NCBI GenBank assembly: GCA_029856045.1
Contig: JAHQWG010000016.1
Location: 32,001-96,000 of the forward strand
From: Promethearchaeia archaeon
Lineage (GTDB): Archaea > Asgardarchaeota > Lokiarchaeia > Sigyniarchaeales > SOKP01
Reading direction: 5' to 3'
Length of the DNA: 64,000 bases
Shown: positions 57,089 to 62,135 of the stretch, piece by piece
Numbering within the stretch: position 1 is the first letter of the stretch
Layout: the number at the start of each line of letters is the position of its first letter
The notes under the pieces: generated by a model
The model's input: the letters and a program-made list of their open reading frames with translations, nothing else
Told to the model about the DNA's origin: nothing
Databases searched by the model: none
Program-made: the position numbers and the translations under genes

Positions 57089-57111
57089 ATGGACTTGACG
57101 GGATTCGAACC
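57089..57111 (-). repeat. Diverged copy of the tRNA-Ala 3' end (outer att site)
   Basis: atggacttgacgggattcgaacc versus atggacctgacgggaatcgaacc at 62063-62085: 2 mismatches in 23. Confidence 0.85.
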
Positions 57112-57115
57112 AAAG

Positions 57116-57134
57116 CTATGTCGTCACGGCATAG
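57116..57134. other. Imperfect palindrome next to the outer att site
   Basis: CTATGTCGT-C-ACGGCATAG; its centre (57125) is 18 bp from the att core end (57107). Confidence 0.7.
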
Positions 57135-57269
57135 TATTTTTCTTCAAATGAGAAAAATTCATATATAAAAGCTAATTCAAAAGTAATAGAAATAATCAAC
57201 CGAAATAAGGAAAACTCATTTCTTAATATCAGTTAAAATTTCATAGAATAAAAAAAATCTCAAAATAGT

Positions 57270-58949
57270 CTATAAGTTAATTTTATTCATCATATCATCT
57301 GGTATAATGATATACAATGGCCACTTTTTTAAAATCCCTTTTGGGACTTTCCCACTTCCTACGTTTTTTAAAACTAAATCACGTGATAAAACAAAATCTA
57401 TGGGTTTTTCATTTATAACTTCAAGCTCTAATGAGTTATTATTCAATAGGTTATTGATATTTGAATTTAATGGGCATTTCATAATCAACATTCGAAGCAC
57501 CCCTAAATCCATTGATTTATCTTCATTAGATACAAACAATGAAAACTTCCATGGTTTAGAATTAGAATAACTTTTATATAATACCAAATAGTTTAAAGAA
57601 TATTCCATATTTTTTTTTATACAATCTAATAGTTTTTTAGGGTTTAAAATAAAGAAATTTGGTAATTTAAAATAATATCCAGCTAATATTTTAAATTTGC
57701 TTGGTATAGTTAATTTTGGAGATAATTTTAGAGGGTATTTTATTATAAATCCCGAACGGATAATATCTCCACTGATTTGAGGAACCCCTTCTTGTTTTTT
57801 TATAGTGATCATATCTCCTAAATCAATATTAACTAATGGGTTTTTATCATCATAGCGAGAAACAAGTAACTTACCAAATTTATTTTTAGATTGGGTAAGT
57901 AAAGAACGGGAATTATTATATTCTAAAACGGGAATAGTTAATGGAAATACATACATCTTATTTTCTCTTGATATTGTGAAGTCTCCATTTGGGAGACTCG
58001 ATGCAAATGGTCCAATTTCTGATGCAACATAAAGGTTCGTGAACTTTTCCTTTCCTCTCTCCCATTGCATAAAACTCCTAATTAAATTCCACTGATTTTC
58101 AGAAAGATTCGATGTACTAAAAATAATTATTGCTTTTGATAAATGGACAGATAATAAATTCCGAATCTTCAATGCCGCTTTCTCTATATTATATTTATTT
58201 ATAATTTTTCTAATCTTATTTAAAACCTTGTTTTGGATTTCCTTATCGTCCCTTTGAAATTCAGTCTTTTTAAATATGCTAATAGAAGATTTTAACCGTT
58301 CAATATTATTCCATTTGAGGATGGTCAAAGCTGGGGCGGAGATCACAGAGATTTTAGGAATAGATAAGATTTTCGCAATTGTATCTATTTGAATAGAATG
58401 TTTATACTCATCTATTAAATATGAGTTAGGTTGGATAATAGAAAGCATGAGACGTTGTGAAAACTCAGAAGAATATAGCGAGACATACTTCAATCCATTT
58501 TTTTCATTTAATCCATCAAAACTCATTCGAGAAGGAATGAAAATAACCACAGATCCTTCTTTTGTTAGCCTGCTTGATTCAAATATTGCTTGCATCCCAG
58601 GTCCCCAAATTTTATATATTAATTGAGGGGACATATAAAACCACTTGAGATCTGAAACCCTACTGCTTGTCGTACCAGATGTATGGCATAATATGGGTAA
58701 TTTTAACCCTACTTTTGATTCAAAAAACGAATGTAAATCCAATGAAAACTCTCTCGATTTTATTTTCTCGACCTTAATACGTCGTAAAAGATATAAAACT
58801 TTATCAAGACCAGAAAGCCTAAGGGAGAGTTCCTCATATTCTTCTCTTGAATTAATATCTAACCAAGCTTTCCAATCCATCTTTTTATAATCTGATAGCT
58901 TTCTTTTAAATACACTCTGGAGTTTTGGATCAAAATCATATTTTAACAT
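57270..58949 (-). CDS. Adenylate-forming (ANL) superfamily protein, GH3/PaaK/LuxE-like
   Basis: HTSGTTS P-loop-like motif, NLYVASEIG, DLGD. Confidence 0.55.
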   Translation of the reverse strand: MLKYDFDPKLQSVFKRKLSDYKKMDWKAWLDINSREEYEELSLRLSGLDKVLYLLRRIKVEKIKSREFSLDLHSFFESKVGLKLPILCHTSGTTSSRVSDLKWFYMSPQLIYKIWGPGMQAIFESSRLTKEGSVVIFIPSRMSFDGLNEKNGLKYVSLYSSEFSQRLMLSIIQPNSYLIDEYKHSIQIDTIAKILSIPKISVISAPALTILKWNNIERLKSSISIFKKTEFQRDDKEIQNKVLNKIRKIINKYNIEKAALKIRNLLSVHLSKAIIIFSTSNLSENQWNLIRSFMQWERGKEKFTNLYVASEIGPFASSLPNGDFTISRENKMYVFPLTIPVLEYNNSRSLLTQSKNKFGKLLVSRYDDKNPLVNIDLGDMITIKKQEGVPQISGDIIRSGFIIKYPLKLSPKLTIPSKFKILAGYYFKLPNFFILNPKKLLDCIKKNMEYSLNYLVLYKSYSNSKPWKFSLFVSNEDKSMDLGVLRMLIMKCPLNSNINNLLNNNSLELEVINEKPIDFVLSRDLVLKNVGSGKVPKGILKKWPLYIIIPDDMMNKINL

Positions 58950-58987
58950 AATAAAATAGTAGTAAGAGTAGTTTTAAAATAAAGTGA

Positions 58988-59137
58988 TTAATATTTTTTT
59001 GTATAGGGGATGTTCTGTGCAAGCCATTTAAAGCTTTCTTTCAAACCTATCCCAGTTTTAGCAGAGACCATATCATATCTAGCTTTTATTCCATATTTTC
59101 TAGGATCATATAGTTTTGAGTTTTCCTTTAGATTAAA
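58988..59137 (-). pseudogene. C-terminal fragment of an Arf-like small GTPase
   Basis: Manual translation ...YDMVSAKTGIGLKESFKWLAQNIPYTKKY*; bounded upstream by an in-frame stop, with no G1-G4 motifs. Confidence 0.7.
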
Positions 59138-59386
59138 TCAAGGATTTTAATCAATATAAAAAAAAGAGAGCCAAAAATAACTAAATACAAATAATTAAAG
59201 TCATAATATTGATTTTCTTTAAGCGATAATGAAATAATTATATTAAAGAAAAATAAAAAAAGATATTTTTTTTGGATCTACTAAAATGGGGGATTCGATC
59301 CCTTTTTTTCAAAAAAAACAAACAGTATTAAATTTAAAATAGTCCAACCCTATTTTCATATTCTAATAATACTTGAAAAATTTTCA

Positions 59387-59405
59387 ATGGACCTGACGGG
59401 AATCG
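59387..59405 (-). repeat. Exact 19-bp copy of the tRNA-Ala 3' end (inner att site)
   Basis: atggacctgacgggaatcg is identical to 62063-62081. Confidence 0.92.
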
Positions 59406-59412
59406 TTTAAAA

Positions 59413-59433
59413 GTGATATCACTGTGATATCAC
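59413..59433. other. 21-bp double palindrome, left copy
   Basis: GTGATATCAC-T-GTGATATCAC, 7 bp from the att core. Confidence 0.9.
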
Positions 59434-59580
59434 CAAAATGTATTTTTTCCAGATTTTTAATTTAAACTGGAATATTTACTTTCCTCATTCAATTTCGTCA
59501 ATTGAGTAAGAAAATATTAGATTATCTTAGTGATTAATTGAGAAAAAGCAAGATATATTTAGTAAGAACTCACATTTCTT

Positions 59581-59910
59581 CTATGATTTAATACTATTTG
59601 TAGTTAAGTAAATTTTTGCTATCTTTATATCATTATTTTTACACGACTTCTCGGGATAAAGCCAAGAACACTTCTTCAACATTTCGACCTGTTTTTGCAG
59701 AGCATTAATAATATCCAAGCATTTATACTTTATTGCAAACAATAATGCATCTTCTCTTTTAACTCCTCTCCCGCTTTCGATGTCTATCTTATTTCCAATT
59801 AGTAAAAGGGGTAAATTTATTAGCAAATTAGGGTGTTGTTCCAAAATTATTTTTAAATTATTTTCACCTTCCCTTAATGATCTCTCACTCAAGATGTCAT
59901 ATACAAAAAT
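59581..59910 (-). pseudogene. Truncated, frameshifted Rab/Ras-like small GTPase
   Basis: NGGIFVYDI...LLLIGNKID in one frame and CSAKTGRNVEEVF..L* in another; the P-loop half is absent. Confidence 0.8.
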
Positions 59911-60349
59911 TCCTCCATTTCTTTAGGATTTAAACGATCCCAAGATTAAACTAATTGTTTTATTAATCAACAAATTTAATTAAACTAATTTTATTCTTTT
60001 TAAAAAAATAAAATATATAGAAAAAGTAATAGGTTAGCAATTATTATTTATATAAGTAATAAAAAATAATTTTCAATATTTTCTCCATTTAAAATGTCTG
60101 ATAAAGATTTAGAAACTCTTATATTCAAAATCGCACTTGATAATGCATTAAATTATAGGGGAAAAACAAGAGAAAAAAATATACTTTCAAAATTATTGGG
60201 ATTGATACAAGAAAAAAATAAATCAATTTAATCTTTGTTTAAAATGATAATACTCTCGGTACCTTGTTTTCACGGGAAGACCCTTCACTTCTCAAAATTT
60301 ATAATTTATAATTATTAAATTAAAAATAATAGATCTCTTAATATTTTAT

Positions 60350-60892
60350 ATGAATCAATCTTCAAAAACTGAACCTAAACAGAGTTTACTTAAAAATAAA
60401 TCTTTTATCGCTGAAACAATCTATCTCATTATTATTATCATAATCATGGCATTAATTTTTCTTGATTTTATTGATACGGGATTTTTCCTCGGTCCATTAC
60501 GCTTTTCCCATTGGATGGGAATAATAGGAACCTTTTTTATCATGGTTTTTGCACCATTCTTTTATGTCATGAAACGTCGTTATCCCAAACGATATAAAAT
60601 TTTGTTGAATATCCATGTATTTGGATTTACTACTTCTTTTCTACTTGTGTCCATCCATTTTGCCGGACAACTGAGTCGTCCATTACAATTTTATCCGGAT
60701 CTAGGAGCTGGATTAGCACTATATATTATTGTAGCCGTCCTTGTTGGCACGGGGTATTTGTTTAGATATCATCTCTTTAAATCGAAAAGTGGAAAAATTC
60801 GCCCTCATTTTAGCAGGTGGTTACACGTTAGTCTGATAAGTGGATTATACATTGTAATGATCATTCACGTTGTATTAAACTTTCCAATTTAA
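60350..60892 (+). CDS. Membrane protein with intramembrane histidines (cytochrome b / ferric reductase-like)
   Basis: About 5 TM helices; FSHWMG, NIHVFG, SIHFAG, WLHV, IIHV. Heme binding is inference. Confidence 0.55.
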   Translation: MNQSSKTEPKQSLLKNKSFIAETIYLIIIIIIMALIFLDFIDTGFFLGPLRFSHWMGIIGTFFIMVFAPFFYVMKRRYPKRYKILLNIHVFGFTTSFLLVSIHFAGQLSRPLQFYPDLGAGLALYIIVAVLVGTGYLFRYHLFKSKSGKIRPHFSRWLHVSLISGLYIVMIIHVVLNFPI

Positions 60893-61039
60893 TTCAATAT
60901 CTAAAAAAACATTAAGAAATAGGATCTCCCCATAGAATTTTATTTTATTTTTTCTTTAGACAACGGGTGCAACCACAAAATGCAGCTCGTAAAAAACAAA
61001 AGCAAAAATCAAAGAAATGCTAAAATCCAAGGTTCAAAT

Positions 61040-61642
61040 TTAGACCCTTAGCGAGCCACGGAACCCCCTAACGCCATAGAAAGAGGGCGCACTGTTATGA
61101 AACACGAAGACATGACCGTAGCGACGATCAACAAAGATGGCGCCGCCTAGTTTTCTAATATCAGAAGGCGTTTTCACCCAGCTCGACGTCTTCGTATCGA
61201 AATTTCCAAGTTTCTGCAACTCTCGATATTGTCCTTCCGTTAAAAGCTCAATGCCCATGGCAGCTGCCATATCAATAGCGTTACCTTCTGGATGCACCCC
61301 TCGCTTTTCCTTCGCCTCCTGCCCTTCACGGTCGTAACAAACATTTCTGCGGCCTTTAGGACTTTCCGCTGAACAATCATAAAAAATGTATTCGCCCGTC
61401 TTTTTATCATGATCAAAAACATCTGGTTCACCGCCAGTTCTTTCCATTTCATTGAGTGACCACAGTTTTTCAGTATTAGCTTCCAGCTTTGCTTGTACTT
61501 TAGCCCATTCAAGAACTTTATGGCGGTTCATGTTTTTCTCAAAACGGGCTTTCAATGCTCTGAGTAGTTCTTCACGTTGTTCTGGTGACAACTCTTTTTT
61601 GAATGCAGTAAATGATGGCTTGCGCATAATCATAGTATTCAT
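61040..61642 (-). CDS. DUF4256 family protein (bacterial-like)
   Basis: RFEKNMNRH, SLNEMERTGGEPDV, DCSAESPKGRR.CYD, FDTKTSSW, GFRGSLRV; visibly more GC-rich than its flanks. Confidence 0.85.
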   Translation of the reverse strand: MNTMIMRKPSFTAFKKELSPEQREELLRALKARFEKNMNRHKVLEWAKVQAKLEANTEKLWSLNEMERTGGEPDVFDHDKKTGEYIFYDCSAESPKGRRNVCYDREGQEAKEKRGVHPEGNAIDMAAAMGIELLTEGQYRELQKLGNFDTKTSSWVKTPSDIRKLGGAIFVDRRYGHVFVFHNSAPSFYGVRGFRGSLRV

Positions 61643-62035
61643 CCTGAGTTTATAAAATTATCTAGGCAGGGAAGGACATTTTTTGTCCTAATTGCGGTGA
61701 AAAATTAGAAAACAATCGATTACTAAGATGGAACAATAATTGAACAAATATATCAACCAATTAAAGAATTATTTTAAATATGTTATTAATTATGGTGTTC
61801 CAAGAGACCGAAAAATCAGACCAAGTTGTCTAGTTTTCGAAAATACTTTTTATTAATTTGCACGAATAATTCAAGTGGAGCTTACTTTTTTCTACAAACC
61901 CATTTTGATTAAGGATAAAAGAGGTAACTAATATCAAACTGATATTAAGGTTGCTTGAATTTTAAATCTGGACAAAAATATTACCGAGCTTTCATATTAA
62001 GTGTAGGAATGATTTTTTCCAATTTTTGGAATAAA

Positions 62036-62056
62036 GTGATATCACTGTGATATCAC
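62036..62056. other. 21-bp double palindrome, right copy
   Basis: GTGATATCAC-T-GTGATATCAC, 7 bp from the tRNA 3' end. Confidence 0.9.
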
Positions 62057-62063
62057 AAAAAGA

Positions 62064-62135
62064 TGGACCTGACGGGAATCGAACCCGTGACCTCTTGAAT
62101 GCGAATCAAGCGATCTTCCTCTGATCTACAGGCCC
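62064..62135 (-). tRNA. tRNA-Ala(CGC), intronless, CCA not encoded
   Basis: Reverse complement GGGCCTGTAGATCAGAGGAAGATCGCTTGATTCGCATTCAAGAGGTCACGGGTTCGATTCCCGTCAGGTCCA: G3-U70 pair, anticodon arm CTTGA-TTCGCAT-TCAAG, TTCGA T-loop. Confidence 0.95.

Follow-up and report, generated by a model that had tools for sequence, protein, structure and literature searches.

Two probable integrase-less cassettes stacked at a tRNA-Ala gene of a Lokiarchaeial genome, with palindromes at a fixed distance from the attachment core

In a stretch of 64,000 nucleotides from a Promethearchaeia archaeon of the Lokiarchaeia (contig JAHQWG010000016.1, positions 32,001 to 96,000; in the following the window, corresponding to C27:32001-96000 of genome G000 with 3.34 Mb, 29% GC and 55 contigs) an insertion is located at the 3' end of a tRNA-Ala(CGC) gene. 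In comparison to empty sites of relatives the total insert comprises 4,974 bp (57112-62085). We assign a probability of about 0.55 to the interpretation that it consists of two integrase-less cassettes which result from successive site-specific integrations (accretion) and whose attachment (att) sites are flanked by palindromes. Islet A (59406-62063) is the tRNA-proximal cassette with both junctions intact, and islet B (57112-59387) forms the outer half of the stack. The islets are decayed cassettes resembling the bacterial cis-mobilizable elements (CIMEs); relics of this type are known, and the regularity of the site design is unusual. We regard the finding as a relic that is well documented, not as a new mechanism that has been demonstrated.

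The right-hand core of islet A (62064-62081) is formed by the final 18 nt of the tRNA-Ala(CGC) gene, which is intact and encoded on the minus strand (62064-62135; ARAGORN, Rfam tRNA model 67.7 bits). An exact copy of this 18-mer (TGGACCTGACGGGAATCG; 18/18 identical, 0 by chance in shuffles) is found on the minus strand at 59388-59405, where both cassettes meet, and the distance from core to core is 2676 bp. Towards the interior of islet A each core is followed by a 7-bp spacer (TTTAAAA at 59406-59412 and AAAAAGA at 62057-62063) and by the 21-mer GTGATATCACTGTGATATCAC, of which two copies without mismatch exist at 59413-59433 and 62036-62056 (0 expected in shuffles). The 21-mer is a perfect dyad of the composition GTGATATCAC-T-GTGATATCAC (pal1), and its centres at 59423 and 62046 lie 18 bp off the core edge. 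Motifs, cores, spacers and the 2676-bp spacing had been listed in an initial annotation made from the sequence alone, and all of them proved to be exact. A symmetric attP (motif-AAAAAGA-core-TTTAAAA-motif), also proposed there, is a reconstruction only, since a circle junction was absent from all collections searched, and the ends of a related islet on contig C38 of the same genome differ from each other. Farther out, each arm carries a second AT-rich palindrome; on the proximal side this is TTCCAA-N3-TTGGAA (62017-62031), with a box AAAAATTGGAWAAAA that is also present in the distal arm of G019:C9, a contig of another genus. The distal pal1 is adjoined by a conserved arm (59434-59560; ATAATCTAAT ... 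TTGAATGAGGAAAGTAA ... TTCCAG-N14-CTGGAAAAAATA), which was aligned with the arms of relatives.

An insertion at the tRNA 3' end had been postulated before, and it is borne out by empty sites. In two genomes of the same genus (G004:C2 and G002:C162) the flank containing the geranylgeranyl-reductase gene is joined straight to an identical tRNA-Ala end; the same direct junction exists in G001, which brings the number of congeners with such a junction to three. The islets are also missing from G003 (69% complete), in which the reductase gene is absent from the locus. Because the flanks are 94-96% identical to those of the islet-free congeners, the insertion is young. The identity of both pal1 copies despite partly decayed cargo, formerly regarded as conspicuous, is a weak sign of selection in a young insertion whose cargo may have arrived as junk. 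Among the hallmarks of a tRNA-targeting integrative element, a direct repeat of the tRNA end next to an intact tRNA and an empty site are present, whereas an integrase of its own is missing.

The unit delimited earlier (59387-62081) is a genuine insertion but not a lone 2.7-kb islet, as islet A is the younger and islet B the older half of two stacked cassettes. A third, decayed core of 22 nt with two mismatches to the tRNA end (57090-57111, minus strand) adjoins the host flank, and the flank junction at this place matches the empty site of G004. Next to this core lies pal2, a 19-bp palindrome CTATGTCGT-C-ACGGCATAG (57116-57134) with its centre at 57125, again 18 bp off the core edge, and an AT-rich palindrome (57137-57157) comes after it. 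At the proximal end of islet B the AT palindrome TTGAAAA-A-TTTTCAA (59373-59387) touches the middle core. The possibility that the core at 57090 belongs to an intron-bearing tRNA was ruled out, since the 5' T-stem partner is missing and the Rfam search was empty.

For every available core a script determined the best odd palindrome on either side and measured its position. In seven clean cases from two genera its centre is placed exactly 18 bp from the core edge (+18 or -18), namely three times in the window, twice on C38 and once each in G019:C9 (a pal1 on the distal side) and G019:C82 (a pal2 on the proximal side). After the tRNA-Ala(CGC) of G019:C1 a third palindrome, which is imperfect, has the same 18-bp offset. 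As only 237 comparable palindromes exist in the whole 3.34-Mb genome, the coincidence at 18 bp is far beyond chance.

A third integrase-less islet is situated at the tRNA-Ala(GGC) of the same genome (C38:13314-15760). Here a pal1 variant, GTAATATCAC-T-GTGATATTAC, lies 7 bp (TCTTTTT) downstream of the tRNA; two paired, symmetric changes distinguish it from the window copies and the 21-bp dyad is kept. The proximal spacer of islet A (62057-62063) likewise reads TCTTTTT in tRNA orientation. About 2.4 kb beyond this variant a decayed core is preceded by the perfect palindrome CTATGTCGT-A-ACGACATAG of the pal2 type, which also recurs on G019:C82, and the islet thus possesses two different palindromes at its ends (pal1 type by the tRNA, pal2 type distal). 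Its outer arm resembles that of islet A, whereas palindrome, spacer and core are of the B type, a makeup expected from a deletion within an A-B stack such as that of the window. In G002 and G004 the C38 islet is missing and the distal flank follows directly after the tRNA. The third alanine tRNA of the genome (UGC) has neither a palindrome nor an islet, and a universal trailer of tRNA-Ala genes was ruled out, for the palindrome is absent there as well as from nearly all tRNA-Ala genes of the family. Because the position is fixed while the sequence class swaps and the dyad covaries, we favour the view that the palindromes would be bound by a dimeric protein acting in recombination or as accessory factor.

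With up to two mismatches the 21-mer is present in three copies in the genome, each beside a tRNA-Ala end or its copy, and with up to four mismatches no further copy exists anywhere in this genome. In this genome pal1 is tied to att sites and is not a general operator. A scan for the 21-mer in relatives, as recommended earlier, gave a more mixed picture: the att linkage holds in the own genome but not throughout the family, because nine intergenic places of other family genomes, all away from tRNAs, have copies with two mismatches (two for the reversed control), one of them some 75 bp ahead of a small winged-helix gene that adjoins an actin homologue. These copies could mean that the 21-mer is the operator of a host transcription factor which just happens to sit on the elements. 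However, the homologous winged-helix gene of the own genome has no motif upstream, copies away from tRNA-Ala ends are lacking there, and other palindrome classes hold the same position at att junctions, which makes an operator most improbable. A separate observation concerns a pal1-like tandem motif (GTGATATCA) between the actin homologue and paired small winged-helix genes (L078 1501-1521 in G049:C40; L079 in G136:C197); at these homologous loci of two genera the motif may be an operator.

Another explanation without any role in recombination regards the palindromes as transcriptional insulators, i.e. hairpins with T runs at the element ends that stop read-through from the tRNA or from flanking host genes into the cargo. 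The folding energy of pal1 is about -10 kcal/mol (z = -4.2), and TTTATT or TTTTAAA comes after it in tRNA orientation; pal2 lies just downstream of the reductase gene and is followed on the plus strand by ATTTTTCTTC. Both pal1 (minus) and pal2 (plus) match the terminator consensus, which is a bacterial rule. In addition, TCTTTTT, the spacer behind the tRNA, is itself a T run, the usual stop signal of archaea. Against this, archaeal termination needs oligo-T and not hairpins, the fold of pal2 is weak in tRNA orientation (-4.3 kcal/mol, z = -0.6), and the exact 18-bp offset on both sides of the core across three unrelated palindrome sequences is unexpected for a terminator. Insulators are a rather unlikely explanation.

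Traces of related sites are spread over the family. The distal arm of about 130 bp is conserved in four of its genera (g1, g3, g4, g11; E<=1e-5) and was aligned from G019, G053, G128, G001, G090, G048 and the own C38, and no such arm was detected in the three other families among the 154 genomes of the order. It adjoins decayed cores or stands alone and holds the boxes ATAATCTAAT, TTGAATGAGGAAAGTAA and TGGAAAAAATA. In other genera (G019, G053) pal1 recurs 7 bp from decayed tRNA-Ala cores; the 21-mer of G053 is decayed, with the 7-bp spacing being the same. Half of the 21-mer is kept in G092 and G122, beside a 0.8-kb islet with one methyltransferase gene, and the distal cores of both genomes read CGATT versus CAATT in the resident tRNA. 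Similarly, two unrelated distal cores (window 57090 and G019:C9) have GTCAAGTCCA versus GTCAGGTCCA in the tRNA. Because the displaced copies differ from the resident tRNA and the variants recur between loci, the core looks element-borne (derived from attP), which would not be expected of a target duplication.

These cores also bear on the idea of non-autonomous transposons moved by a casposase-like enzyme, with the palindromic ends as terminal inverted repeats and the 18-bp core as target-site duplication. The ends are indeed inverted-repeat-like, the palindromes reading the same both ways, and casposons, too, are specific for tRNA 3' ends, have inverted ends, duplicate a short target and stack in tandem. 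However, their duplications measure 14-15 bp versus 18-22 bp here, the 7 bp adjoining the core differ between both ends, the distal-core variants are shared by unrelated loci and absent from the resident tRNA, and neither Cas1 (no PF01867 match in the genome) nor PolB is present. Since the distal cores look element-borne and Cas1 is lacking, a casposon-like model is very unlikely.

Returning to accretion, we propose that two integrations took place in turn into the 3' end of tRNA-Ala(CGC). Each incoming attP would have brought along a copy of the final 18-22 nt of tRNA-Ala, and recombination with the tRNA would regenerate the gene and shift the earlier cassette outward as in bacterial CIMEs. 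In this design the core is flanked on one or both sides by a perfect palindrome of 19-21 bp with its centre exactly 18 bp from the core edge. Beyond it comes the second AT-rich palindrome, and the distal side has the conserved arm of about 130 bp in addition. The palindromes fall into two or more unrelated classes of sequence (pal1, pal2 and possibly a third) occupying the same position. They may represent exchangeable binding sites, about five helical turns apart across the core, of a dimeric protein which the parent element used for recombination or as accessory factor. The agent would presumably be a tyrosine-type site-specific recombinase, and the cassettes would now be inert unless a helper element arrives.

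The lack of an integrase inside islet A, already stated in the initial annotation, was confirmed by open reading frame (ORF) and Pfam searches, and neither an integrase ORF nor a fragment of one is present in the whole segment 57112-62063 (ORFs, Pfam, stop-to-stop frames). In the genome the single PF00589 match is a XerA-like gene of 318 aa on C8, another contig than those of the islets; this gene is present once in every relative tested. No serine recombinase was detected in the genome. The five arm-bearing genomes of relatives encode the XerA-like gene and a few integrases of 310-434 aa. Accordingly, the recombinase acting in trans that was proposed from the sequence finds no support, and a tyrosine recombinase linked to the motif, recommended there as a check, was not found, as the genome offers only the XerA-like enzyme and no such gene lies near the arms in the five genomes. 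The circle junction predicted for a 2676-bp molecule did not appear either. In GTDB representative genomes the exact 21-mer gave six matches, all in unrelated bacteria. The pattern palindrome-7 bp-core had no match in IMG/VR and a single one in JGI metagenomes, on a contig of the same species in the integrated state, and the conserved arm box was not found in IMG/VR. Eighteen metagenome contigs of the species (JGI, Logan, ENA) are 99.8-100% identical, and none of them contains the circle junction. Because all of them share the same A+B arrangement, the cassettes look fixed. The designation as non-autonomous cassette fits the missing integrase, whereas mobilisability was an assumption; a dead relic is equally compatible with the fixed arrangement, and 'mobilisable in trans' is possible but unsupported.

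Several points weigh against two successive site-specific integrations. No recombinase is encoded in the cassettes and the genome has only the XerA-like gene; the additional integrases of the five other genomes are never near a tRNA-Ala core, a palindrome or an arm. The 154 genomes of the order, GTDB representatives, JGI metagenomes and IMG/VR (with two exact 21-mer matches in IMG/VR unexamined) yielded no autonomous relative, and viral, genome and metagenome collections did not contain the circle junction. Core and spacers, read by eye, lack an obvious dyad symmetry of the tyrosine-recombinase type. The palindromes are at the same time terminator-like hairpins with T runs after them, and the fixed geometry could partly stem from common descent of the arms instead of constraint. 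Metagenome-assembled genomes (MAGs) often miss episomes, and for this reason the lack of integrase-bearing relatives is weak evidence.

The same lack invites another view, in which Lokiarchaeial tRNA-Ala genes serve for gene capture: small cassettes that never had an integrase would be inserted by a chromosomal enzyme, XerA-like or unrecognised, and exchangeable palindromes 18 bp on each side of the tRNA-derived core would guide it. We consider this scenario unlikely; if true, archaea would possess a counterpart of integrons or of Xer-exploiting elements. Its specific form, a host enzyme capturing cassettes in an integron-like manner or in that of integrative mobile elements exploiting Xer (IMEX), with the palindromes as recognition or folding modules, appears quite unlikely. 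It agrees with the one XerA-like gene per genome examined and none in the cassettes, with the small, stacked and palindrome-bounded form of the latter and with the missing integrase-bearing relatives in the 154 genomes and IMG/VR, the last being a weak point given the episomes lost from MAGs. A precedent exists in the dif sites of Thermococcales, for which flanking inverted repeats that may bind a partner were reported (PMC2958812). However, the site used by Xer enzymes is dif with its 11-6-11 dyad, a structure that the tRNA-Ala core does not have. Furthermore, congeners with the same XerA have empty sites, and the constant arrangement in all metagenome contigs gives no sign of turnover.

Among known systems the CIMEs come closest to the two cassettes. 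In bacteria, tandem accretion of CIMEs, e.g. of Streptococcus islands related to ICESt1/ICESt3, leads to elements which keep attL and attR while the integration genes are absent (PMC5704250). In both cases a later element enters the restored end of the target, so that the youngest member of the stack lies at the tRNA, and islet A has attL and attR without genes for integration or transfer. The differences are the archaeal host (a Loki-type Asgard archaeon) for which no cognate integrase-bearing element is known, and the swappable perfect palindromes at a fixed 18-bp offset, which are outside the description of CIMEs. A related autonomous helper with a matching integrase was not found in the collections named above, although absence from MAGs weighs little.

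Tycheposons and their remnants in Prochlorococcus also target tRNA genes, are flanked by partial tRNAs and push older elements inwards by repeated integration at one tRNA (bioRxiv 10.1101/2020.12.28.424599). Integrase-less remnants and adaptive or defensive cargo are common to both, but tycheposons have tyrosine or serine integrases and replication modules, none of which is found here. With integron cassettes the islets share small size, missing recombinase, stacking at one site, bounds of palindromic recombination sites and an enzyme located elsewhere. In contrast, neither an IntI-type integrase nor an attI platform was detected. The repeat consists of a tRNA 3' end, a bare tRNA gene makes up the empty site and the sole tyrosine recombinase is the one on C8. 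The att site of IMEX mimics the host dif, whereas the target of the islets is a tRNA end and not an 11-6-11 dyad. Flanking palindromes of this kind are described neither for the att sites of the SNJ2 integrase nor in a review of archaeal tyrosine recombinases. Particular to the present case are the Asgard host and the modular palindrome design.

To our knowledge, little is known about gene acquisition by Asgard archaea. The tRNA-Ala genes of one Lokiarchaeial family emerge as recurrent landing sites for small cargo, such as a ShosTA-like defence pair, toxin-antitoxin genes and a DUF4256 gene moving between genera. The sites are built regularly, from a core and exchangeable palindromes that keep a constant distance to it, and this design can be tested. 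Should the enzyme be found, the design would provide a ready substrate for work on site-specific recombination in Asgard archaea; should there be none outside the chromosome, host-driven capture of cassettes would be indicated.

The genes found at these sites are typical island cargo, comprising the ShosTA-like pair, VapBC, a methylase and the laterally moving DUF4256 gene. Between the cores of islet A four features are located: the gene of a DUF4256 protein (200 aa, 61040-61642, minus strand; Pfam PF14066, 4.9e-85) in a patch of 38% GC, a 180-aa membrane protein without known family (60350-60892, plus strand; family searches empty), a 45-aa ORF which is probably a gene fragment and has no family (60094-60231, plus strand), and a 5'-truncated and frameshifted pseudogene of a Ras-like small GTPase (59642-59892, minus strand; weak match to Pfam Ras). 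The latter was resolved by tblastn with the intact GTPase of G090 into two pieces in different frames; dozens of small-GTPase genes exist in the genome. Together with its intron-bearing tRNAs and an actin homologue in a relative, these genes assign the genome to the Loki-type Asgard archaea. Islet B encodes a 559-aa protein (57270-58949, minus strand) without a match in Pfam, NCBIfam, PADLOC and PDB; its motif CHTSGTTSS (TSGTT), read by eye, may hint at an adenylate-forming enzyme. It also contains the 3' fragment of a second small GTPase (...SAKTG...; 58988-59137, minus strand, stop-to-stop frame) and, on the plus strand, a GC hairpin GGGGGATTCGATCCC (59288-59304) with T7 after it, which resembles a terminator and, vaguely, a T-arm. 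In the C38 islet a DprA-like and phosphoribosyltransferase pair fits the Shosta/PsyrTA defence models (ShosA 9e-41; ShosT weak).

The DUF4256 segment (60959-61684) has 38% GC versus 29% of the genome and 89% DNA identity to a copy in another genus, on contig G019:C203, where the surrounding context is unlike that of the window and no arms are found. Most metagenome contigs of the species break within or just ahead of this segment, and because of these breaks it is suggested to be common to co-occurring genomes. Exact-protein look-ups returned only the same arrangement for the 180-aa and the 559-aa protein and no record for the DUF4256 product. The exact 180-aa protein occurs on 23 metagenome contigs, with an unchanged arrangement among the matches listed (10).

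The arm-adjacent islands of G019 harbour methylase, VapBC, a HEPN/nucleotidyltransferase (NT) pair, fragments of insertion sequences (IS) and a group II intron reverse transcriptase (RT), without an integrase. One of them, G019:C36:1-20300, is a large junk and defence island with a decayed arm and core at its end, which contains group II intron RT, IS fragments, the HEPN/NT pair, VapBC and an N6/N4 DNA methylase. A 382-aa ORF beside the arm of this contig looked integrase-like by eye and was rejected, as it has no recombinase domain; upstream of it group II intron RT, IS fragments and toxin-antitoxin genes were found and no integrase. The 6.6-kb island after the tRNA-Ala of G019:C1 has no recombinase.

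In several MAG contigs the start or the end coincides exactly with a tRNA-Ala end or an att arm (ends of G001:C241 and C245; starts of G019:C9, C82 and G078:C7), which fits population heterogeneity or repeats at these places. Although the genome is rated 100% complete, only 17 tRNAs were called in it by ARAGORN. The tRNA-Ala(UGC) gene (C27:177880-178003) and tRNA-Ala genes of relatives are intron-bearing, and such tRNAs are mostly missed by this program. Because tRNA-Ala genes carry introns, standard tRNA counts are unreliable here.

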